DNA of 64,000 nt from Candidatus Nealsonbacteria bacterium (GTDB taxonomy: Bacteria; Patescibacteriota; Minisyncoccia; Minisyncoccales; DAOVPY01). The notes beneath the pieces are model-generated. The model searched no databases. It was given only the letters and a program-made list of their open reading frames with translations, and was not told the DNA's origin. A program made the position numbers and the translations under genes. Where the stretch lies: assembly GCA_030628945.1 (NCBI GenBank), contig DAOVPY010000003.1, positions 1,297 to 65,296 on the forward strand. Direction: 5' to 3'. Below are positions 2,619 to 34,029 of the stretch, piece after piece (positions within the stretch are counted from its first letter, which is position 1; every line of letters starts with the position of its first letter).

Positions 2619-4323
2619 TCCCTCACTCGCAATTATGAAAAAAACAAAAAAAATAAAAAAAACAAAAAGGAAGAAAACCAAGAAATTTATCAACAAAGTT
2701 AAGAAGGTTCACCCTGTTAAATCCCTCTCGCCACGGAGGCGAAAGGGAATTTCGCGCACAGCGAAATTATTTAACAGGGCAAGAAAATCAGTAAAGAAAC
2801 CGAAGAAATCAAAAAAATTAAAGAAAATCGCGAATAAAAAAAAGCCGAACCTTGGCGTTGTTGGCAAAGAAAATGAAATCTATAAATCCAAAATCAGGAT
2901 TATTGGAATTGGCGGCGGCGGAAACACAATTATTAACGAGCTTGCCCTGAAAATAAAGAGGGTAAGTTTTGTCGCCGCAAACACCGACAGCCAGGCCCTT
3001 GGGCAGATGTCTTCCGGGGTAAAACGTTTCCAATTTGGCAGGGATTTGACCCAAGGTTTGGGATGCGGAATGAATCCTCATTTGGGGAGAACGGCCGCCT
3101 TGAAGGAAAGAGAAAGAATAGCCAAACTTTTTGAAGGAATTGATTTAGTTATTTTAGTCGCCTGTCTGGGCGGCGGAACCGGCTCCGGCGCGGCGCCGGT
3201 TTTTGCCGAGATTTCCCAGGAACTTAAGAAAAATTGTCTCGGTGTTTTTACTTTGCCCTTTGTTTTTGAGGGAGAAAAGAAATTTCAAATCGCCAGAAAT
3301 AGTTTAGAAAAAATTGCTCCCAGAATAAATACCCTTACCACTTTTCCCAATGAAAGAATTTTTCAAGTTATTGACCGCAAAACCCCGTTGAAAGACGCGT
3401 TTTCCTTTGTCAACAAAGCGTTGGCCGAGACCCTGGAGGGACTGGTGGAAATGATTTATTTGCCCGGATTAATCAATATTGATTTTGCGGACCTGAAAAT
3501 GATTTTAGGGGACTCTTCTCTTATTTCCAAGGAAGGGGTAAAAATAGCTTATCTTAACAGCGTGAAAGCCGCGGGCCCCAACCGGGCGGAGGAAGCGGTA
3601 AAGAAAGTTCTTTATAATCCCTTAAGCGAGTACAATATCGGGGGCGCCGGTTCATCTTATTCTTTTTCCCTGCGTTTGATTCCCGAGAAAATTTTGTTTA
3701 ATATTACGGCGCCAAGAGATTTGAAAATGAAAGAAGTGGAGCAGATTAGCAAAACCATTGTTGATTACAATAGACAGGCAAAAATAGTTTTTGGAGTTTC
3801 GTATGACAGATTTCCGCGCAATCAAGATAATCTCAGGATAACTTTGCTGGCGACCGGGAGGAAAACGGAAGAGGAGAAACCAAAGGAGAAACCAAAGGAG
3901 AAACCAAAGAAGAAACCAAAGAAGAAGCAAGTTCGCCCTGTTAAAGAAAAATCAAAACAACCGGTTCTTTTGCCGGCAAGAACTACCCGGCCACGCTTGA
4001 TTGTTTCTCCCAAAAAAAAGCTTCCTGTTCTGCAAAGCAAACCCGGACAAAAAATAAAAAAAATATCTAAACCAAGAAGGAAGAAATCGGTCCCTTCTTT
4101 TGGTTCTTCTTTGTCCGGCAACAATAAGCCGCGCGAGAAAGGAGCAAGGATTCAGCAAACTTCGGGCTTAAATCATAATTCCCTTTCTGCTTCTGACCAA
4201 AAAATCAGGAAGAACGCTTTGGATTTGAAAAAAGAAACAGAGCGGATAGAAAAAGAAATGTGGGCAGAGGAAGAGAAATGGAACATTCCGGCTTTTTTGC
4301 GGAAAAGAAATAAGTCCGATTAG
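2602..4323 (+). CDS. ftsZ: Cell division protein FtsZ with about 100-aa Lys-rich N-terminal extension and about 170-aa basic C-terminal linker
   Basis: Tubulin signature GGGTGSGAAPV, IGIGGGGNTIIN, ANTDSQAL. C-terminal peptide IPAFLRKR. No alternative start codon lies between aa 13 and the core. Confidence 0.9.
   Translation: MNFRISPSLAIMKKTKKIKKTKRKKTKKFINKVKKVHPVKSLSPRRRKGISRTAKLFNRARKSVKKPKKSKKLKKIANKKKPNLGVVGKENEIYKSKIRIIGIGGGGNTIINELALKIKRVSFVAANTDSQALGQMSSGVKRFQFGRDLTQGLGCGMNPHLGRTAALKERERIAKLFEGIDLVILVACLGGGTGSGAAPVFAEISQELKKNCLGVFTLPFVFEGEKKFQIARNSLEKIAPRINTLTTFPNERIFQVIDRKTPLKDAFSFVNKALAETLEGLVEMIYLPGLINIDFADLKMILGDSSLISKEGVKIAYLNSVKAAGPNRAEEAVKKVLYNPLSEYNIGGAGSSYSFSLRLIPEKILFNITAPRDLKMKEVEQISKTIVDYNRQAKIVFGVSYDRFPRNQDNLRITLLATGRKTEEEKPKEKPKEKPKKKPKKKQVRPVKEKSKQPVLLPARTTRPRLIVSPKKKLPVLQSKPGQKIKKISKPRRKKSVPSFGSSLSGNNKPREKGARIQQTSGLNHNSLSASDQKIRKNALDLKKETERIEKEMWAEEEKWNIPAFLRKRNKSD
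2712..2779. repeat. 68-nt three-way-junction palindromic element inside the ftsZ reading frame
   Basis: Outer stem ccctgttaaat/atttaacaggg (11 bp). Arm A ccctctcgcc-acgga-ggcgaaaggg. Arm B aatttcgc-gcaca-gcgaaatt. Confidence 0.7.
3874..3921 (+). repeat. In-frame 12-nt tandem repeat x4 (gagaaaccaaag) encoding (E/K)KPK repeats in the FtsZ linker
   Basis: Three perfect units and one unit with a single substitution, read directly from the sequence. Confidence 0.85.
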
Positions 4324-8150: not shown

Positions 8151-9359
8151 ATGAAAATTTTATTAGTTATTATAGATGGCCTTGGAGACAGGCCCATTGC
8201 GAAGTTGGGTGATAGGACGCCGCTGGACGCGGCGAAAACACCGAATTTGGATTATATGGCAAAGCAAGGAGTTTGCGGTTTAATAACTCCTTTTTTGTTT
8301 TCGCAGGAGAAAGAACCAACTTCAGAAGGCGCTCACATCGCCTTGTTCGGCTATCAAAATTATTTTTTAGGCAGGGGACCCTATGAAGCTGTTGGAGCGG
8401 GGATGAAAATGAACGCCGGAGACGTTGCCTTGCGGGTGAATTTTGCCACGGTAGATAAGAATTTTAAAATTATTGACCGGCGAGCCGGAAGAATAGAAAA
8501 AACCCAACCATTGATAAAAGCATTGTCAAAAATAAAGATTAAAGGGGTGAAATTTTTAATCAAAAGATCTTTTGGCCACCGCGCCGTTTTGCTTTTGAAG
8601 TGTTTAAGGTTGAACCTTAAACAGCTGTCATCGGGGATTTCAGACAACGATTCTCATAAAAATAAAGTAAAAATTAAAAAAATTATTCCCTTGAATCAAT
8701 CAAGAGAAGCGAAATTCACTGCTGATGTTTTGAGTGAATATTTAGCCAGAGTCCATCATATATTAAAAGACCATTTTTTGAACAGAAAAAGGGAAAAACA
8801 AGGGCTTTTGCCGGCTAATTATCTTTTAGTCAGGGGCGCCGGCAAGTTCAAAAAAACTCCAAGTTTCAAAGAGAGATATAATTTAAGCGCTGCTTGCGTT
8901 GCCGGCGGCGGATTATACAAGGGCGTGGCAAAAATTTTAGGAATGGATTTGATTAAAGTTAAAGGCGCGACCGGTATGGCAGACACCAACCTCAAAGCAA
9001 AATTTCGTGTGGCGAAAAACGCGTTAAGAAAATATAACTTTGTGTTTCTTCATATTAAAGCGACAGACACTTTTGCCCACGACAATGATTTTATCGGTAA
9101 GAAAAAATTTATAGAAAAAATTGACAAAAATATAAAATCTATTTTATGTCTGAAAAATGCTCTTATCGTAATTACGGCAGACCATTCCACTTGCTGTAAT
9201 ATGAAAGCTCATTGCCTTGAACCAATACCGATCTTGATTTTTGGCGATGGAAAAGACAATGTTTCTCAATTTTCCGAGCGTACTTGCGCAAAAGGCAATT
9301 TCAAAAAAATAAAACAAACAGATTTAATGCCAAAAATTTTAAAACTGGCAAAAATTTGA
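8151..9359 (+). CDS. apgM: 2,3-bisphosphoglycerate-independent phosphoglycerate mutase, archaeal type
   Basis: MKILLVIIDGLGDRPI N-terminus, HIKATDTFAHD, ITADHSTC; about 400 aa. Confidence 0.85.
   Translation: MKILLVIIDGLGDRPIAKLGDRTPLDAAKTPNLDYMAKQGVCGLITPFLFSQEKEPTSEGAHIALFGYQNYFLGRGPYEAVGAGMKMNAGDVALRVNFATVDKNFKIIDRRAGRIEKTQPLIKALSKIKIKGVKFLIKRSFGHRAVLLLKCLRLNLKQLSSGISDNDSHKNKVKIKKIIPLNQSREAKFTADVLSEYLARVHHILKDHFLNRKREKQGLLPANYLLVRGAGKFKKTPSFKERYNLSAACVAGGGLYKGVAKILGMDLIKVKGATGMADTNLKAKFRVAKNALRKYNFVFLHIKATDTFAHDNDFIGKKKFIEKIDKNIKSILCLKNALIVITADHSTCCNMKAHCLEPIPILIFGDGKDNVSQFSERTCAKGNFKKIKQTDLMPKILKLAKI
8602..8622. repeat. 9-bp perfect hairpin inside apgM
   Basis: gtttaaggt-tga-accttaaac, encoding the CLRLNLK segment within the otherwise conserved GHRAVLLLK...LSSGISDND block. 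Confidence 0.45.
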
Positions 9360-13975: not shown

Positions 13976-15919
13976 ATGAGAAAAAAACTAATTAAAAAAG
14001 GAAATTTGTATTTTCCTTCCAAGGAATTCGAAAAGAGGGCGTGGGTGAATGATAAAAAGATTTACAAAGAAGCGGCAAAAAACCCGATTAAATTTTGGGA
14101 AAATTTGGCAAAACAACTTTTTTGGTTTACCCCGTTAAATAGTGCCAAAGGCAATTTAACAGGGGAACAAAAATGGAAGAAAACCTTTGTCCACAAGCCG
14201 CCGCGTTTTCAATGGTTTGTTAACGGGAAAATAAACATTACTTCAAATATCTTTGAGCGCAATTCTTTGGGCTGGGAAAGTATTAAAAATAAGCCGGCTT
14301 TAATTTGGGAGCCGGAACCGATACAGGAAAAATTCAGGACATTTACCTATGAAAAACTTTTCAGAGAAGTCAATCAATTTGCTAACGCTCTGAAAAAATT
14401 GGGAGTGAAAAAAGGAGATAGAATAGGAATTTATCTGCCAATGATTCCAGAGGCAGTGATATCAATGCTTGCCTGCGCCAGGATTGGAGCTGTTCACTCT
14501 GTTGTTTTTTCCGCTTTTTCTTCAACCGCGCTCAAAATTCGGCTTCAAGATACAGGCGCAAAAATTTTAATTACCGCAGACGGTTATTGGCGCCGGGGAA
14601 AAATTATTGATTTGAAGAAAAACGCGGATGACGGGATTAAGGGAACAAAAGTGAAAAAAGTTATTGTGGCAAAGCGAGCCGGGAATAAAGTAAAAATGGA
14701 AAAAGCAAGAGATTTTTGGTGGGAAGATTTAGCTAAAAATCAACCTGATTTTTGCGAACCAGAAATAATGGATTCCGAAGACACATTATTTATTCTTTAC
14801 ACAAGCGGTTCCACGGGCAAGCCAAAGGGCACGGTTCACGTCTGCGGCGGTTATACTGTTCAGGCAAAGTTTACCGGAAAATGGATATTTGACTGGCGCG
14901 ATGAAGATATTTTTTGGTCTACCGCTGATTTGGGCTGGATTACCGGCCATACATATAGCTGTTATTCACCCTTGCTTAATGGCGCGACTTTTCTTATTTA
15001 CGAGGGCGGGATAGATTGGCCCGAGCCGCGCAGGTGGGCGAAAATTATTGAGAAATATAAAGTAAGCGTCTTTTATACCGCGCCCACGGCCGTAAGGATG
15101 TTTGCCAAATACGGGACTGGTCTTCTTAAGGGAATTAATTTTGAGAGTTTGCGGTTATTAGGCTCGGTGGGCGAGCCGATAGATGAATCAACATGGCAAT
15201 GGTATTTCAAAAATGTTGGACAAGAAAGATGCCCTGTCGTGGATACCTGGTGGCAGACCGAAACAGGCGGGATTTTAATAACCTCTTTGCCAGGCATTGG
15301 CCCTTTTAAGCCGGCTTTTACCGGATTGCCTTTTCCGGGAATAAAATTTGATATTAAAAATGGAAATTTAGTTCTTCTTCCTCCTTTTTGTCCCGGACTT
15401 TTGCGGGGAATTTACAAAAATCCCAAAAAATATTTAGATACTTATTGGAAAAAATATGGCAAGAAGATTTACTTTACCAGCGACGCTGCCTATAAAGATA
15501 AAAATAATTTAATTCGGATTATCGGCCGAGTGGATGATGTGATAAAAACAGCCGGACATCGTTTAAGCACCGGCGAATTGGAAGACGCTGTTTCAAAACT
15601 AAAAATTATCAGCGAAAGCGCCGCAATAGGAATTTTTGATGAAATAAAAGGAGAAGCGCCGGTGATTTTTATTGTCTTGAAAAAAGCTGGAAACATTGAA
15701 GAGGTTAAAAAAGAAGTTATAATTCAGCTCAGGAAAGAAATCGGGCCCATTGCCAAGCCAAAGCAGATTTATTTGGTTGATGATTTGCCGAAAACCCGCT
15801 CAGGCAAAATTATGCGTAGAATTCTAAAAAAATTATTCACTGGCGAGGAATTAGGCGATTTGTCCACATTAGCCAACCCGAAAAGCGTAGAGAGAATCCA
15901 AAAAATAATAAAAAATTGA
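13976..15919 (+). CDS. acs: Acetyl-CoA synthetase (AMP-forming)
   Basis: YTSGSTGKPKG, WWQTETGG, and C-terminal PKTRSGKIMRR. The ATG at 13976 is preferred over the TTG at 13958. Confidence 0.9.
   Translation: MRKKLIKKGNLYFPSKEFEKRAWVNDKKIYKEAAKNPIKFWENLAKQLFWFTPLNSAKGNLTGEQKWKKTFVHKPPRFQWFVNGKINITSNIFERNSLGWESIKNKPALIWEPEPIQEKFRTFTYEKLFREVNQFANALKKLGVKKGDRIGIYLPMIPEAVISMLACARIGAVHSVVFSAFSSTALKIRLQDTGAKILITADGYWRRGKIIDLKKNADDGIKGTKVKKVIVAKRAGNKVKMEKARDFWWEDLAKNQPDFCEPEIMDSEDTLFILYTSGSTGKPKGTVHVCGGYTVQAKFTGKWIFDWRDEDIFWSTADLGWITGHTYSCYSPLLNGATFLIYEGGIDWPEPRRWAKIIEKYKVSVFYTAPTAVRMFAKYGTGLLKGINFESLRLLGSVGEPIDESTWQWYFKNVGQERCPVVDTWWQTETGGILITSLPGIGPFKPAFTGLPFPGIKFDIKNGNLVLLPPFCPGLLRGIYKNPKKYLDTYWKKYGKKIYFTSDAAYKDKNNLIRIIGRVDDVIKTAGHRLSTGELEDAVSKLKIISESAAIGIFDEIKGEAPVIFIVLKKAGNIEEVKKEVIIQLRKEIGPIAKPKQIYLVDDLPKTRSGKIMRRILKKLFTGEELGDLSTLANPKSVERIQKIIKN
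14131..14166. repeat. 36-nt (12-codon) palindromic element in frame inside acs
   Basis: The outer stem ccccgttaaat...atttaac(a)gggg is nearly identical to the ftsZ element stem; inner hairpin tgcc-aaa-ggca. Encodes PLNSAKGNLTGE. Confidence 0.65.
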
Positions 15920-15935
15920 AAATATAAATATAAGA

Positions 15936-15973
15936 TATAACACATATAGAACGGCCGTGTTATATGTGTTATA
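15936..15973. repeat. AT-rich 13-bp perfect palindrome between acs and ppsA
   Basis: tataacacatata / tatatgtgttata flank acggccgt. No T-run follows. Confidence 0.6.
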
Positions 15974-21301: not shown

Positions 21302-21337
21302 TAAAGACCTGAGTTTTAAGATTTGCTATCTAAAAAT

Positions 21338-22816
21338 ATGCCTTCTCGCATTTTAAAATTAGTTTCATTATTCTTGTTTGTTTCGGTTTTGGTTTTGCCG
21401 AACTTTTTTGTTTTAAGCGAGGAGCCAGACGCTTCGCTAAATTTAGAAGAAATTTGCGAAAAAATTTGTCAAATTGAGCAAAAACCGGAAGAGGTTTCAG
21501 ATGAGGAATACAAATCTTTATTAAGAAAATGCGAAGCCTATTATCAGGAAAAAAGCGAGGAAATAGAAAAGGATATCACTAAAACCCAAAAGGAAAAGAA
21601 AACTCTTCAAAATGAAATTTGGAGCATCAGAAACACAATAAAAAAACTGGAGAACCAGATTTATCAAAGCAATTTAATGATTAAAGACCTTGGCTTGCAG
21701 ATTGAGGATACAGAAGGCGCTATTGGAAAAACCTCTTTGAAGATTGGAAAATCGCAGGAAAAATTAGTTAATATCTTAAGAACAATTTACGAGGAGGACC
21801 AGAAGTCAATAGTTGAGACATTGCTTTCAGAAGCCAATCTGTCTGATTTTTTTGATAATTTAGTCGCCCTGGGGGCTCTCGGAGCTGAAAACAAAAAACT
21901 TTTGGGCCATATTAAAAATCTAAAACTTTATCTTGAAGAGCAAAAGGGATCTCTTGACAGCGAAAAACAGGAATTAGAGGGGGTAGTGGTTGTGCGGTCC
22001 CTGCAAAAACGGGAAAATGCGGCGGCAAAAAGAAAGCAGGAAGGTTTATTAAAAATGACCGAAGCGGAATATCAGCAATCTTTGAAAGAGAAAAAAGAAA
22101 CCCAAGAAAGGATAACTAAAATTGGAAATTTGCTTTTTGAATTGTTGGAAGTGCCGTCCGGCGGCATAAAATTTGAGGATGCGGTAGAAATTGCCAGGTC
22201 CACTTCTCTGCTTACGGGCATAAGTCCGGGATTTTCTTTAGCAATTCTCTGGCAAGAAACAAGAATAGGAAAACTTAAAGGAGGATGTTATTTGAGAGAT
22301 AAAAAGACAGGAGACGGGATTTACATTAAGACCGGGAACAAAGCGCCGCGGACAATGAAGCCGAGTCGCGATATATCTCCTTTTGAAAAAATTATTAAAG
22401 AGTTGGATAAAGCTAAAAAAATAGAAACTGATATGTTTCATACTCCGGTGTCTTGCTGTATGGTTCTTAGTAATGGAAATTTGTTTGGTTGGGGAGGGGC
22501 AATGGGTCCTGCCCAGTTTATTCCTTCCACATGGATGCTTGTTAAACAAGAAATAGAAAAAAAGACCGGCAATATTCCGGCTAATCCTTGGGATATACGA
22601 GACGCTTTTTTGGCTAATGGCTTATATCTGAGAGATTTGGGGGCAAACGTTAAAACTTACAATGCGGAAATGAATGCCGCTTTGAGATATTTTGGCTGCA
22701 CTTCCAGTTGGTGCAGGAAAAATTATGGCGAACCAGTGATGGCTGTGGCAGAGTGCTGCGAGCAATATATCAATAACGGCACAATGTCTTCTGCGTGCGA
22801 AAATTTAATTTTTTAA
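21338..22816 (+). CDS. Secreted coiled-coil protein with C-terminal lytic-transglycosylase-like domain
   Basis: Signal/TM LKLVSLFLFVSVLVLP, then about 250 aa of coiled coil. C-terminus carries ILWQETRIG (candidate catalytic Glu) and GAMGPAQFIPSTW. Confidence 0.55.
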   Translation: MPSRILKLVSLFLFVSVLVLPNFFVLSEEPDASLNLEEICEKICQIEQKPEEVSDEEYKSLLRKCEAYYQEKSEEIEKDITKTQKEKKTLQNEIWSIRNTIKKLENQIYQSNLMIKDLGLQIEDTEGAIGKTSLKIGKSQEKLVNILRTIYEEDQKSIVETLLSEANLSDFFDNLVALGALGAENKKLLGHIKNLKLYLEEQKGSLDSEKQELEGVVVVRSLQKRENAAAKRKQEGLLKMTEAEYQQSLKEKKETQERITKIGNLLFELLEVPSGGIKFEDAVEIARSTSLLTGISPGFSLAILWQETRIGKLKGGCYLRDKKTGDGIYIKTGNKAPRTMKPSRDISPFEKIIKELDKAKKIETDMFHTPVSCCMVLSNGNLFGWGGAMGPAQFIPSTWMLVKQEIEKKTGNIPANPWDIRDAFLANGLYLRDLGANVKTYNAEMNAALRYFGCTSSWCRKNYGEPVMAVAECCEQYINNGTMSSACENLIF

Positions 22817-22827
22817 CCAAATAAAAT

Positions 22828-22875
22828 AAAATCCATTACAAACTAATCCGATCGGATTAGTTTGTAATGGATTTT
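22828..22875. terminator. 48-nt perfect palindrome (bidirectional terminator between convergent genes)
   Basis: aaaatccattacaaactaatccg|atcggattagtttgtaatggatttt. Confidence 0.8.
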
Positions 22876-22883
22876 ACAGGACG

Positions 22884-31290: not shown

Positions 31291-34029
31291 ATGAAGGAAG
31301 AAATTTTACCCCCCGCCACTTTTGGCGTTTCGCCAAAAGTGGCGGGGGGCGCGTGGCACAATTTGGAATGGGAAGAGGTGGTGAAGAAATTCGGCTCAAA
31401 CGTTGAAACGGGTTTAACCGAGAAAGAAGTGAAAATCCGCAGAAGAAAATTTGGAGCCAATGAATTGCCCGCGGAAAAACCTTTTTCTAAAACAAGGATA
31501 TTTTTGGAGCAAATCAGAAGCCCCCTGGTTTATATTTTAATAGTTGCCGGAATCGTCACTTTTCTTTTCAAAGAATACACCGACTGTATGGTTATTTTCG
31601 GCGCTGTTTTTTTGAATACCATTGTTGGTTATTTTCAGGAAAATAAGGCATCAAACGCTCTTAGACAGCTCAAAAAAATAGTCAGGCACAGCGCTCGGGT
31701 AGTCAGAGATGGAGGCGAAAGCATAAAGGATTCTTCTGACTTGGTAATCGGAGATATTTTTATTTTAAATCCCGGAGACAGGGTTCCGGCAGACGGACGG
31801 CTGATAGAAGTTCACAATTTAAAAATCAATGAAATGTGCCTTACAGGGGAGTGGCTGCCGGCAACAAAGCGCCTGGATATTTTGCCTGAAAAGACCTCTC
31901 TGGCCGACAGAGACAATATGGTTTATATGGGTTCTATTGTTGAGGACGGAAAGGCCGCGGCAATAGCCGTTGGGACCGGAATTCAAACCGAGATAGGAAG
32001 AGTCGCTGAAATGGTGAAGGAAACCAAAGAAGAAAAGACCTCTCTTCAAAAAAAATTAGCCCGTTTTAGCAAAATTATCGGGATGATTATTGCCGTTGTT
32101 TGCGTTGGTATTTTTATTGAAGGAGTAATAACAGGCGTGGAGGTTATAGAAATGTTTACCATTGCCGTTGCCGTTGCGGTCGCCGCTATTCCAGAGGGAC
32201 TGCCAGTGGCTATGACCGTAATTTTGGCTCTGGGAATGACCAGGATTTTGAAAAGAAAGGGATTAGTGAGGAAATTAGTCGCCGCGGAAACTCTTGGCTC
32301 TACTTCAATAATTTGCACCGACAAGACCGCTACTCTGACCCAGGGGAAAATGAGAGTGAGCGAGATTTTTACTCCCGGGCAAATTTTTAACAAGAAGGAT
32401 ATGGACAAAGGAAGCGCCTCCTTAACAATGGCTCTAAAAATTGCCGCGCTTTGCAATGAAGCGTTTATTGAAAATCCCGAAGCAATGATGGAGAAATGGA
32501 TTATTCGGGGGAGACCCACTGACAAGGCGTTGCTTTCGGCAAGCATAGAGGCCGGTATTAATAAAAAAGAATTAGAGCAACAGCTCTTTGAAATTGATGA
32601 AGTTCCCTTTGATTCAATTCATAAATACATTGCCAAACTCTATCAAACAAAAAATGATTCCCGGGTTTTATATGTCTGCGGCGCCCCCGAGAAAATTTTG
32701 GGTCTGTCTGATTATTTTGAAATAGACAACAAAATAGAAGAATTAAGCGTTGGCAAATTAAAACAAATGGAATTAAAATTAGATGATTTAACTGGAAAAG
32801 GGATGAGGGTAGTGGCAGTGGGGTACAAGGAAGCGAAAAGCGAAAAGCGAAAAGCGAAAAGATTAGAGGAAGAAGTAAAAAATCTGGTTTTTGCGGGATT
32901 TATTGCGTTGAAAGACCCGTTGAGGAAAGAAGTCAAAGGAGCGATTAAGATTTGCCAACAAGCGGGAATGAAGCCGATTATTGTGACAGGCGACCATAAA
33001 TTGACAGCCAGGGCAGTAGCCGAGGAATTGGGCTTAAAAATAAAAGAAGAGCATATTTTAGAAGGAGAAGAATTAGACCAATTTTCAGACGAGGAATTTG
33101 ACCGGCGGGTTAAAGATATTCAAATTTACGCCAGAGTGGAACCAAAACATAAAATGAGAATTATCAGCGCCTGGCAAAGGAGGGGAGAGGTGGTTGCAAT
33201 GACCGGCGATGGAATCAATGACGCGCCGGCGCTGAAAAAAGCGGATATTGGCGTAGCTTTGGGTTCCGGCTCCGAAGTGGCAAAAGAGGTCTCCGACCTG
33301 ATACTTTTGCCGGATTCTTTTGATATTATTGTTGCGGCTATAGAAGAAGGAAGGGCGATTATTGACAACATCAGGAAGGTGATTACCTATCTGCTCTCTG
33401 ATAGTTTTACCGAAGTAATTTTAATTGGAGTAAGCCTGATGCTGGGTTTGCCTCTGCCGATTGTAGCGGTTCAGGTTTTGTGGGTGAATCTTATTGAAGA
33501 CGGCCCGCTCGGTCTCTGTCTTGCCTTTGAACCGAAAGAAAAAGATTTAATGCGCAGAAAACCCGAGAGCAGCGATATTCCTCTTTTGACCAAAGAGATG
33601 AAAGCGTTGATTTTTATCATTGGATTAATAACCGACATTTTACTTTTGGCCCTGTTTTTTTGGCTTTTGAGATATTCTAATTATGAAATTCCACATATTC
33701 AATCAATAATTTTTGCCGGATTAACCATTGATTCTCTTTTTTATGTTTTCTCCTGTAAAAGTTTGCGTAGAAATCTCTGGCATATAAATCCCTTTTCCAA
33801 TAAATTTTTAATTCTTGCCTGGGCGCTCGGGATAATCGCTTTGCTTGCGGCATTATATGTTCCTGTTCTTCAGACCCTTTTAAAAACCGTGCCCCTGAGT
33901 TTATTTGACTGGCAGCTTGTTTTGGGTTTGGGCTTATTGAATATACTATTGATTGAAGCCACCAAATGGTATTTTATCACGAAATTGCCCCTCACCCTTT
34001 CGCCTGAAGGCGAAAGGGTGAGGGGTTAG
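31291..34029 (+). CDS. P-type ATPase, Ca2+-transporting (P2 type)
   Basis: TGE motif, phosphorylation site CTDKTATLT (Ala replaces the usual Gly of DKTGT), TGDGINDAPALKKADIG, 10-TM layout. The ATG at 31291 is preferred over the upstream extension. Confidence 0.9.
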   Translation: MKEEILPPATFGVSPKVAGGAWHNLEWEEVVKKFGSNVETGLTEKEVKIRRRKFGANELPAEKPFSKTRIFLEQIRSPLVYILIVAGIVTFLFKEYTDCMVIFGAVFLNTIVGYFQENKASNALRQLKKIVRHSARVVRDGGESIKDSSDLVIGDIFILNPGDRVPADGRLIEVHNLKINEMCLTGEWLPATKRLDILPEKTSLADRDNMVYMGSIVEDGKAAAIAVGTGIQTEIGRVAEMVKETKEEKTSLQKKLARFSKIIGMIIAVVCVGIFIEGVITGVEVIEMFTIAVAVAVAAIPEGLPVAMTVILALGMTRILKRKGLVRKLVAAETLGSTSIICTDKTATLTQGKMRVSEIFTPGQIFNKKDMDKGSASLTMALKIAALCNEAFIENPEAMMEKWIIRGRPTDKALLSASIEAGINKKELEQQLFEIDEVPFDSIHKYIAKLYQTKNDSRVLYVCGAPEKILGLSDYFEIDNKIEELSVGKLKQMELKLDDLTGKGMRVVAVGYKEAKSEKRKAKRLEEEVKNLVFAGFIALKDPLRKEVKGAIKICQQAGMKPIIVTGDHKLTARAVAEELGLKIKEEHILEGEELDQFSDEEFDRRVKDIQIYARVEPKHKMRIISAWQRRGEVVAMTGDGINDAPALKKADIGVALGSGSEVAKEVSDLILLPDSFDIIVAAIEEGRAIIDNIRKVITYLLSDSFTEVILIGVSLMLGLPLPIVAVQVLWVNLIEDGPLGLCLAFEPKEKDLMRRKPESSDIPLLTKEMKALIFIIGLITDILLLALFFWLLRYSNYEIPHIQSIIFAGLTIDSLFYVFSCKSLRRNLWHINPFSNKFLILAWALGIIALLAALYVPVLQTLLKTVPLSLFDWQLVLGLGLLNILLIEATKWYFITKLPLTLSPEGERVRG
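31309..31349. repeat. 19-bp perfect hairpin in frame near the ATPase N-terminus
   Basis: ccccccgccacttttggcg-ttt-cgccaaaagtggcgggggg, encoding LPPATFGVSPKVAGGA. Confidence 0.75.
33989..34026. repeat. 17-bp perfect hairpin forming the last 13 codons of the ATPase ORF
   Basis: cccctcaccctttcgcc-tgaa-ggcgaaagggtgagggg, followed immediately by the TAG stop. Confidence 0.75.

Follow-up and report, generated by a model that had tools for sequence, protein, structure and literature searches.

Why does a gene for an acetate-CoA ligase carry, within its reading frame, a hairpin whose stem is almost that of a second hairpin in ftsZ? The question is raised by a 64-kb stretch of contig DAOVPY010000003.1 from a Candidatus Nealsonbacteria bacterium (64,000 nucleotides in all, called the window below), which is AT-rich (about 39% GC) and whose proteins are closest, judging by the names of their homologues, to those of Candidatus Parcubacteria / Patescibacteria. 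The gene, acs, was assigned to an AMP-forming acetate-CoA ligase from its open reading frame (ORF; 13976..15919 on the + strand, open from 13958) and from its homologues, which are named acetate--CoA ligase and carry PF16177/PF00501/PF13193. The comparisons described here revealed that its hairpin belongs to a dispersed, polymorphic family of palindromes, that the unit inserted is the palindromic core plus 4 nt beside the tetranucleotide TTYA, and that the ends of the family are also those of longer units encoding a GIY-YIG nuclease, in which the right arm is the end of the coding sequence. We consider it highly probable that the acs hairpin is a non-coding miniature of such a GIY-YIG mini-element of about 290 nt, similar to a transposable element of the miniature inverted-repeat kind (MITE) and translated in frame as part of its host gene. 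The manner in which it would have moved is proposed from sequence comparison.

The palindrome in acs and its empty sites

The palindromic core measures 35 nt (14130-14164, + strand) and lies in frame. It consists of a left arm, CCCCGTTAAAT (14130-14140), an AG spacer followed by an inner hairpin, TGCC-AAA-GGCA (14143-14153), and a right arm, ATTTAACAGGG (14154-14164), after which the G at 14165 opens a 4-nt tail, GAAC (14165..14168). On its 5' side the core abuts TTTA (14126..14129), a Phe codon TTT plus an A; empty sites also have this putative target tetranucleotide. The fold of the core was calculated at -16.5 kcal/mol (z = -3.8), a value that none of 200 shuffled sequences equalled. A first-pass annotation, made from the letters of the window, had reported a palindrome with the ftsZ-type stem at 14131-14166; the element was confirmed in the sequence, but its true core starts one base further left. 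The two stems had been said to differ by one base in each arm, which is correct for the left arm (CCCC in acs, CCCT in ftsZ), whereas the right arm, ATTTAACAGGG, is identical in both. The base described as a bulged A is better read as part of a C.A mismatch, because related copies have CCCCG opposite CGGGG.

The ftsZ gene (2635..4323, + strand, from its translation, with the start taken as the ATG at 2635; homologues with PF00091/PF12327) contains a 68-nt family member (2712..2779, + strand) with arms CCCTGTTAAAT and ATTTAACAGGG, flanked by TTCA (2708-2711) and CAAG (2780-2783). Two hairpins within its arms form a three-way junction (-37.4 kcal/mol, z = -7.9), and the element is translated in frame as HPVKSLSPRRRKGISRTAKLFNR in a Lys-rich N-terminal extension. 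The 11-nt arms are thus common to the 35-nt core in acs and the 68-nt element in ftsZ. The heptamer pair GTTAAAT..ATTTAAC occurs once in the window at a spacing of 5-35 nt, where 0.04 are expected, and once at 36-66 nt, where 0.05 are expected. Allowing up to three mismatches per arm, no further credible copy was found in the 64 kb (15 matches, compared with 12.9 in shuffled sequence).

To place the insert in acs, the 120 closest Acs homologues (68-83% identical by BLASTP) were aligned. In 109 of them the motif FW(F/x)-K/E-K-W-K-K runs uninterrupted, and the nearest homologue, P0001 (83-87% identity; our numbers, P for proteins and L for loci, are given where needed), is among these empty ones. 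Salmonella Acs (2p2f, E = 2e-167) leaves a 9-residue gap opposite the insert. The remaining 11 homologues carry an insert, all at exactly the same point, corresponding to residues 52-64 of the window protein counted from the ATG at 13976. It takes the form of TPLNSAKGNLTG or TPLNNAKGNLTG, of TPLNPRKARCSPKANNLTG, of TPLEIPKQKAGKKKVRKSLTG, or of a decayed TRPSFSSKNLGG, and TPLNSAKGNLTG is identical in several orthologues. The first-pass annotation had set conservation of the 12 residues in Acs of unrelated taxa against its own proposal; such conservation was not seen, the block being absent from those 109 of the 120 closest homologues. In a neighbour-joining tree built with the insert columns removed, and poorly resolved at about 75% identity, the filled genes fall into at least eight scattered lineages, each with an empty neighbour at 86-90% identity; six of these lineages lie inside one large clade.

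The extent of the inserted unit became clear at the DNA level, where five filled and three empty genes were read. The typical empty site reads TGG TTT GAA/GAG AAA TGG (L126, L127), and the third empty gene, from the window's nearest relative (L001), is divergent at this point (TGG AAT AAA TTG TGG, W-N-K-L-W). In each of the five filled genes TGG TTY A is followed by the core, then by 4 nt and AR AAA TGG. The inserted unit is therefore the core plus 4 nt, which in the window amounts to 39 nt and 13 codons and not the 36 nt and 12 codons of the first reading; the 12 codons PLNSAKGNLTGE (14132-14167 in the acs frame) are followed in effect by a 13th, GAA, from the tail GAAC. This tail is the counterpart of TRA-A, a stop codon plus A, in the full-length elements described below. 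Across the filled genes compared, the 13th codon is GAA (window), TTA, CGA, TCA or TTT, all of them sense. The interiors vary as well, consisting of one hairpin, two hairpins or a stretch that forms no hairpin; four interior types are found at this one site, and the short interior AGTGCCAAAGGCA is common to four filled lineages. In L004 the outer stem covaries (CCCCGTTAGAGATT / AATCTCTAACGGGG) and the peptide changes with it. The core of the window is identical at 34/35 and 33/35 positions to the Acs copies in L002 and L005 (94-97%), and the flanking coding sequences are 66-79% identical. Metagenome ERZ4756919 is the source of the filled L002 and also of the empty L127. In an AlphaFold2 model of Acs the insert is a coil with a block pLDDT of 58, the neighbouring blocks having 83 and 87-96. 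As judged from this model, the insert is probably tolerated as a low-confidence loop of the N-terminal domain, and the 13 residues would be a neutral passenger without function for Acs. A peptide spanning FTPLNSAKGNLTGEQK would mark the translated acs insert.

Copies outside the acs site point to movement. The core of a metagenome contig, L177, is 35/35 identical to that in acs and lies in a context unrelated to acs, and the core of L178 is identical at 33/35 positions. The Acs homologue P0082 has a sub-type, TPLE..SLTG, at a second Acs site near the C-terminus, where the DNA reads TTA-TTTA-core-TTTA-CC and three empty genes have a single TTYA (TTTA in L001 and L126, TTCA in the window). The close relative whose contig, JGI Ga0466255_071024, encodes P0001 has a family member of 56 + 4 nt in apgM, which adds 20 residues; the window apgM is empty at 9012..9038 (approximate; + strand, about codons 288-296 of ORF 8151..9359, junction ..GCG TTA|AGA AAA TAT..), and the two proteins align by BLASTP with a clean 20-residue gap and 80% identity elsewhere. 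The second hairpin of the apgM copy, AATTTCGC..GCGAAATT, is the second hairpin of the window ftsZ element, and the copy is read in the other open frame (PVK..FNR) with TGAA retained. For ftsZ, the insert peptide is present in none of the 120 closest FtsZ homologues, including P0122 from the contig of the close relative, while the empty site could not be aligned at the DNA level because the Lys-rich N-terminal extension is too divergent. Between the window and this relative (Acs 83-87% identical), palindromic inserts differ at four sites, acs, ftsZ, apgM and a P-type ATPase gene. The last of these is a different, GC-rich perfect palindrome, CCCCCCGCCACTTTTGGCG-TTT-CGCCAAAAGTGGCGGGGGG (31309-31349, in frame with the ATG at 31291), encoding PPATFGVSPKVAGG between MKEEIL and AWHNLEWEE and missing from the relative's gene (L248 7057..9927, MAENFWHNLSWEE); with it, the genome has two families of palindromes inserted in reading frames.

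These data can also be read as a single ancestral entry at the acs site in Parcubacteria, followed by vertical inheritance and many precise losses, which would make the insert an immobile relic. The site is indeed identical in all filled genes, the AGTGCCAAAGGCA interior recurs in four lineages, and the poor resolution of the tree, with six filled lineages in one large clade, leaves room for such a history. However, it calls for many independent, base-perfect deletions, since the empty genes all read W-F/x-K/E-K-W, and it sits poorly with four interior types at the site, with a former stop-codon position that differs among the filled genes, with a core conserved at 94-97% between flanks at 66-79%, with an identical 35-mer outside acs, and with the same sub-type at a second Acs site. 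We regard this history as unlikely. The differing 13th codon fits several separate histories at the site; its hypervariability follows from the 4-nt tail being the parental stop codon plus A.

Several inserts and palindromes of other kinds were seen alongside. Acs homologues P0039, P0083, P0041, P0062, P0081 and P0003/P0070 have lineage-specific inserts of 5-20 residues at other positions, such as KPPHLKLGGGG, PYSRAKLGTGRLAEGENR, ESAETRSRQNCRERVSADLL and AGLPASAASKALQ (from the protein alignment only), which may derive from other palindromic element families. FtsZ homologues P0134 and P0125 have other repeated inserts in their Lys-rich N-terminal extensions, for example RQNLVFVHRTKIRTTRRSAS, repeated in P0134, which suggests that short elements often land in the disordered extension. 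Outside coding sequence, the window has strong palindromes at 22827-22876, 15936-15973, 2524-2574 and 33988-34025, none with family arms. They include a perfect 25 + 25-nt palindrome directly 3' of ORF 21323..22816 and hairpins directly after acs, directly before ftsZ and at the end of the ATPase gene, and are probably terminators.

Distribution and structure of the family

The family was surveyed with two scans for exact patterns, CCCTGTTAAAT-N16-46-ATTTAACAGGG over one genome per species and CCCCGTTAAAT-N10-40-ATTTAACRGGG over JGI metagenomes, which returned at least 119 and at least 120 stretches; by our own estimate about one match or fewer would be expected by chance. Together with the 35/35 copy outside acs, these counts bear out the earlier proposal that the acs and ftsZ hairpins are members of one repeat family and no coincidence. 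They also extend it, in that most members are intergenic, the family crosses phyla and its full-length members encode a GIY-YIG nuclease. The element occurs in independent ENA, JGI, Logan and NCBI assemblies, and the titles of the matches name Patescibacteria (several classes), Saccharibacteria, Desulfobacterales, WOR-3/Stahlbacteria, Omnitrophota, Cloacimonadota, Armatimonadota, Acidobacteriota, Bacteroidales, a gammaproteobacterial metagenome-assembled genome (MAG) and Clostridium thermobutyricum. Among the matches listed, several MAGs have two to four element-bearing contigs each, and the GC content of the loci ranges from 0.26 to 0.57.

Position 4 of the left arm is C or T and its partner G or A, and every combination occurs, so the acs variant CCCC/CAGGG is an ordinary member. 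Core length varies between 32 and 78 nt and peaks at 48, 54 and 56, and a 35-nt class with AG and a 4-bp stem recurs. The interior is made up of two short hairpins in 156 of 257 cases and of one hairpin in 81, with inner loops that are mostly triloops (GAA/TTC, AAA/TTT, GTA, GGA, AGA). In the 56-nt class (26 members, a set chosen by its arms and by AAT/ATT), pairing holds in 98.2% of cells and double changes were found at 10 of the 14 inner pairs (5/5 in helix 2, 5/9 in helix 3), a result that none of 500 shuffles reached. The arms themselves covary between sub-families: GTTAGAA/TTCTAAC, GTTAGAT/ATCTAAC, GTTAGAG/CTCTAAC and GTCAAAT/ATTTGAC.

About 15% of copies are open within a long ORF (19/136 and 20/130), and the remainder are intergenic, often in very short spacers. 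The length of the core is 2 mod 3 in 17 of 19 copies within ORFs, as is required if core + 4 equals 3n. The third reading frame has a TAA in each arm, and consequently only two peptide signatures are seen. The flanks of 125 copies conform to the profile TTYR, core, YRAA; 4-nt direct repeats (TCAA, TAAA, TTTA, TTGA, TGAA) abut the core in 21 of 278 copies, with 4.6 expected (z ~9), and tandem copies have 4-nt spacers between them. With respect to neighbouring genes the orientation shows no bias (15 versus 18), and when 744 adjacent ORFs were clustered no recurrent neighbour appeared, only housekeeping families. Rfam at its gathering threshold recognised only tRNAs and rRNAs in the window and in 15 loci, and the best match to the ftsZ element was a miRNA model at an E-value of 1.5. 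In the literature searched, the 11-mers of the arms were found only in primers and coincidences, and nothing relevant was found on in-frame palindromes or MITEs of the candidate phyla radiation (CPR), on inverted repeats of GIY-YIG genes or on COG2827.

Some loci depart from this general form. A 62-nt sub-family in WOR-3 / Stahlbacteria MAGs (L017, L021, L025, L032, L057, L062, L071, L073, L090, L095, L121) has a conserved non-hairpin interior, AAAGTACCAGAGATGATTACTTGTACTTAATTTTGTAAAT, and a right flank conserved for about 30 nt further, including TTGACA (a -35-like hexamer), so that the repeated unit is longer in this sub-family. In L010 (the 6,934-nt contig JAHJJO010000063.1, excluded from some counts), two copies with their flanks are exact reverse complements 5.5 kb apart, which looks like a fold-back assembly artefact. 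On a metagenome contig (L244 1-240), the anticodon loop of a class-I tRNA (anticodon read as CAA) is interrupted by an element of the GAT sub-family, CCCCGTTAGAT..ATCTAACGGGG, whose interior is a complete tRNA-Val(TAC); the interrupted tRNA itself lies within another such element, in the 3' half of a further tRNA. This is the only tRNA case among about 250 loci.

Full-length relatives and the probable origin of the insert

A search for arm pairs further apart uncovered full-length units. On L127, the contig of one of the empty Acs genes, a 286-nt element of the form ttca-CCCTGTTAAAT ... ATTTAACAGGG-taaa encloses a GIY-YIG nuclease gene with two frameshifts. The reconstructed protein has 3,764 homologues at E <= 1e-5, of which the best 120 are mostly 84-86 residues long, with 74-87% identity to the query (a few reach 87-154 residues, being N-terminally extended annotations or fused duplicates), are assigned to PF01541 in precomputed annotation, and come from CPR bacteria (Minisyncoccia, Azambacteria) and also from Bacteroidales and Prolixibacteraceae. 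Scores of the full-length relatives against Pfam PF01541 are 57-61 bits (cut-off 22.6), whereas no separate ORF exists in the acs copy. Among solved structures, the UPF0213 proteins BH0048 (1zg2) and EF2693 (1ywl) come closest, and the 84-86-residue proteins consist of the catalytic domain, with no additional DNA-binding domain.

Both arms can be recognised in these genes. The C-terminal KSYLTG is present in 104 of the best 120 homologues, and its Y-L-T-G, TAT TTA ACR GGG, is the right arm; over-extended N-termini reading FTLLNNFKF are translations of TTCA-CCCTGTTAAAT-AATTTTAAATTT, that is, of the left flank and left arm. Intact copies have the structure ATTCA-CCCTGTTAAAT-18 nt-ATG ... T-ATTTAACAGGG-TAA-A (L249) and TTTA-CCCTGTTAAAT-25 nt-ATG ... 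ATTTAACAGGG-TAA-A (L267). In Bacteroidales (L259/L260) both arms have changed in a compensatory manner, CCCTGTCAAAT ... ATTTGACAGGG-TGA-A, and the protein still ends in YLTG. In the intact L249, L267 and L259 copies the right arm contains the end of the ORF. Inverted repeats of other kinds bound further GIY-YIG genes in the loci retrieved, CCCTGCACCTTTAT/ATAAAGGTGCAGGG with flanks TTGA..TTGA, the GCCCTGTGTAAT type, and CCCGTTAGGGAT/ATCTCTAACGGG; arms change in step with GIY-YIG sub-families. AATT, with which the full-length leader starts, is also by far the most frequent subterminal tetramer in the miniatures (70 of 502 ends, the next having 21). Intact units were seen to adjoin or lie within Avd/IVP-like genes (L249-L258, L260-L265). 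Such units lie directly 3' of the bAvd gene of a diversity-generating retroelement, in the order target gene, bAvd, GIY-YIG, reverse transcriptase, and in Bacteroidales two different units stand in tandem between two fragments of a 23S_rRNA_IVP (Avd-like) gene.

The following course of events would account for the acs hairpin. In the full-length element, about 290 nt long, TTYA and the left arm CCCYGTTAAAT precede a short leader rich in AATTT and a GIY-YIG (UPF0213-type) gene of 85 codons, whose last four codons (Y-L-T-G) form the right arm ATTTAACRGGG and whose stop codon plus A (TRA-A) is the 4-nt tail. Miniatures would arise by internal deletion, with one or two short hairpins replacing the gene. 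Most of them lie between genes, and a copy in coding sequence would persist only if its length (core + 4 = 3n), its frame and its position can be tolerated. The acs unit, placed after TGG-TTT-A, adds 13 residues read in the parental frame (..N-L-T-G), a frame in which the former stop codon had to become sense, here GAA. The small nuclease may recognise the CCCYG-terminated hairpin or cruciform and mobilise miniatures in trans, with the tetranucleotide TNNA as the presumed target.

Taken further, the acs hairpin would be a miniature of an unrecognised class of mobile DNA, namely units of about 290 nt that hold only the gene for an 85-residue UPF0213-type nuclease and are moved by it across uncultivated and candidate phyla. 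We advance this tentatively and rate it somewhat below an even chance; that the parent element represents a class not yet described has a substantial chance. In such a class a structure-specific nuclease would act on the extruded hairpin, the targets would include essential protein genes, entered in frame, and a tRNA anticodon loop, and the spread, according to MAG titles, would cover Patescibacteria, Desulfobacterota, WOR-3, Omnitrophota, Cloacimonadota, Bacteroidota and others.

Several observations weigh against the origin from a GIY-YIG element as just set out. The two flanks differ in most copies, which have TTTA..TGAA or, in reverse complement, TTCA..TAAA, so that simple duplication of a 4-bp target is no general rule. 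A subset also has, beyond the tetranucleotides, (A)TCTGYG(T)-type direct repeats 7-9 nt long (15 where 0.4 are expected), which the model leaves unexplained. They flank TTYA-core-TGA in L067, L139, L134, L180, L237, L124, L104 and WOR-3 loci, read TCCGCG or TTCGTG in some organisms, and at some loci are accompanied by extra copies of the heptamer nearby; they may represent a target duplication of 8-9 bp or iterons that were already there. That at least eight Acs lineages are filled at exactly one site with near-identical interiors is more than a 4-nt target alone can account for, and permissive-loop selection, homing or recombination between orthologues, and ancestral presence with precise loss are candidates for this recurrence. 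No GIY-YIG gene was found in the 64-kb window by tblastn, and the nuclease gene, like the tRNA found in one element, could be cargo and not the mobilising enzyme. Nuclease activity and movement are proposed here from comparing sequences, the requirement for exact arms biases both the counts and the apparent variability of the family, and the phylum labels were taken from MAG titles.

If the nuclease gene is only occasional cargo, the hairpin could instead be moved in single-stranded form by a Y1 (HUH) transposase encoded elsewhere, as in systems of the REP/REPIN (repetitive extragenic palindrome) or IS200/IS605 type. Insertion beside a tetranucleotide without general target duplication, a unit of core + 4, clean empty sites, an element that is hairpin throughout with mostly GAA/AAA/GTA-type triloops, and cargo that varies and in one copy is a tRNA would all suit such a system. 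However, the flank profile has no GTAG or CGTC tag of the kind described for REPs and related repeats (PMC3733652). Among 2,192 ORFs in 1.6 Mb of sequence flanking the elements, none has an HUH-Y1 motif. The right arm is conserved C-terminal coding sequence of the nuclease in most of the best homologues, and the arms follow the GIY-YIG sub-families. A Y1 system is accordingly improbable, and the GIY-YIG element remains our preferred source.

A selected cis-acting signal in the mRNA or DNA of acs and ftsZ, serving for instance ribosome pausing, cleavage by RNase III, attenuation or the binding of a protein, might be suspected from the stable structure, the conserved pairing with covarying inner stems, and a nucleotide sequence more conserved than the flanking codons. 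Its absence from 109 of the 120 closest Acs and all 120 closest FtsZ homologues largely refutes this, and the same sequence recurs in unrelated intergenic and genic contexts across phyla, without orientation bias and without an Rfam family match, so we hold such a role to be very improbable. Selection at the protein level, with the 13 residues serving Acs as an adaptive surface loop and the palindrome being incidental, is extremely improbable: TPLNSAKGNLTG is identical in several orthologues, but ftsZ and apgM translate this DNA in a different frame (PVK..FNR), most copies are non-coding, the outer stem of L004 covaries while its peptide changes, and in the model the insert is a coil of low confidence. 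Chance palindromes or assembly artefacts, which AT-rich genomes rich in imperfect palindromes might offer (116 inverted pairs are listed in the window), are refuted by the expected 0.04-0.05 arm pairs per window and by the independent assemblies.

Five further candidates were tried and rejected. The heptamers fit GTTRRRY/RYYYAAC of integron attC sites, yet their order is reversed (GTTAAAT ... ATTTAAC, on both strands). TGTTAAAT, which we take to be the outer 8 nt of the E. coli XerD arm, resembles a Xer/dif site by coincidence, as no second arm lies 6-8 nt away and the sequence to its left is unrelated. The lack of orientation bias relative to flanking genes (15 versus 18) speaks against an intrinsic terminator. 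An intron or translational bypass was rejected because deletion of the element fuses long ORFs in 23 cases compared with 16 in shifted controls, and the striking cases are adjacent genes (alr|ilvB, dnaG|rpoD, tyrS|pheS), not split ones. General targeting of tRNAs in the manner of introns is confined to L244, the other 'introns' reported by ARAGORN having no elements.

To our knowledge, in-frame palindromic inserts in essential genes are known mainly from the palindromic elements of Rickettsia (RPEs) and a few REP families, and the acs case presents the same phenomenon in small CPR genomes. Four differing sites between two relatives amount to a sizeable and overlooked source of protein-length variation and annotation noise; in proteins from MAGs such inserts can be flagged by the arms CCCYGTTAAAT/ATTTAACRGGG and the peptides (T)PLN..LTG and PVK..FNR. 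The family is unusual in keeping the same 11-15-nt ends across phyla and in its minimal nuclease gene, where one of the repeats forms the coding end. This nuclease is a member of the large, functionally uncharacterised family of small GIY-YIG proteins. If it does move the element, it would be a type of mobilisation enzyme outside the recognised transposase classes of insertion sequences (IS) and a very compact structure- or sequence-specific nuclease. If the class is truly unrecognised, the widespread small GIY-YIG (COG2827/UPF0213-like) proteins would be selfish nucleases.

Comparison with known systems

RPEs and intragenic REPs (Ogata et al., via PMC3733652) are dispersed short palindromes that are mostly non-coding, a minority lying in frame and adding a peptide. 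That paper reports no dedicated transposase for CGTC-tagged repeats such as RPEs, the CGTC tag being that of RPE-4 and RPE-6, and a GTAG or CGTC tetranucleotide marks the end of the REP palindrome (PMC3733652). The present family resembles RPEs in its in-frame insertion into functional protein genes, the acs, ftsZ and apgM copies being open and 3n long. It differs in having no sequence relation to them and neither tag, its flanks being TTYA/TRAA, in a Parcubacteria-like host, in length (32-78 nt against 100-150 nt for RPE-1), and in its occurrence in many phyla with the same 11-15-nt ends and a GIY-YIG link. With REP/REPIN elements, their REP-associated tyrosine transposases (RAYT) and the IS200/IS605 palindromes, it shares hairpins of 20-60 nt with a tetranucleotide at the foot of the stem, tandem or grouped copies and clean empty sites. 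Its tag, however, is TTYA/TRAA and not GTAG, no Y1 transposase was found nearby, and its ends are the coding end of a GIY-YIG gene.

Intervening sequences (IVS) of 23S rRNA, which are removed from the rRNA by RNase III and are associated with S23p/Avd-like proteins, are likewise inserts bounded by stems inside essential RNA or protein genes. Unlike them, the present elements give no sign of removal at the RNA level, since the copies within ORFs are open and 3n long; the only link is through the GIY-YIG units in or next to Avd/IVP-like genes. Free-standing GIY-YIG homing endonuclease genes are known from the seg genes of phage T4 and the I-TevI family. The catalytic domain and the sporadic same-site pattern, as in acs, are common to both, whereas the family described here has a domain of about 85 residues without a DNA-binding domain, holds its gene between inverted repeats, inserts at many unrelated sites and has spawned non-coding miniatures.

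MITEs, exemplified by Correia/NEMIS and the enterobacterial RU/ERIC elements, offer a further parallel. The presumed parent here is an 85-residue GIY-YIG unit and not an IS with a DDE transposase, there is no uniform target-site duplication, and interiors rebuilt from hairpins lead to a three-way junction. Like MITEs, the miniatures are shorter than 300 bp and non-coding, have terminal inverted repeats (arms of 11 nt, or 15 nt with the flanks), exist in many copies with presence/absence polymorphism (acs, apgM, ftsZ), and are occasionally intragenic and in frame. As with MITEs, too, their ends are common to a longer coding element, the GIY-YIG units of about 290 nt, whose nuclease would be the mobiliser.

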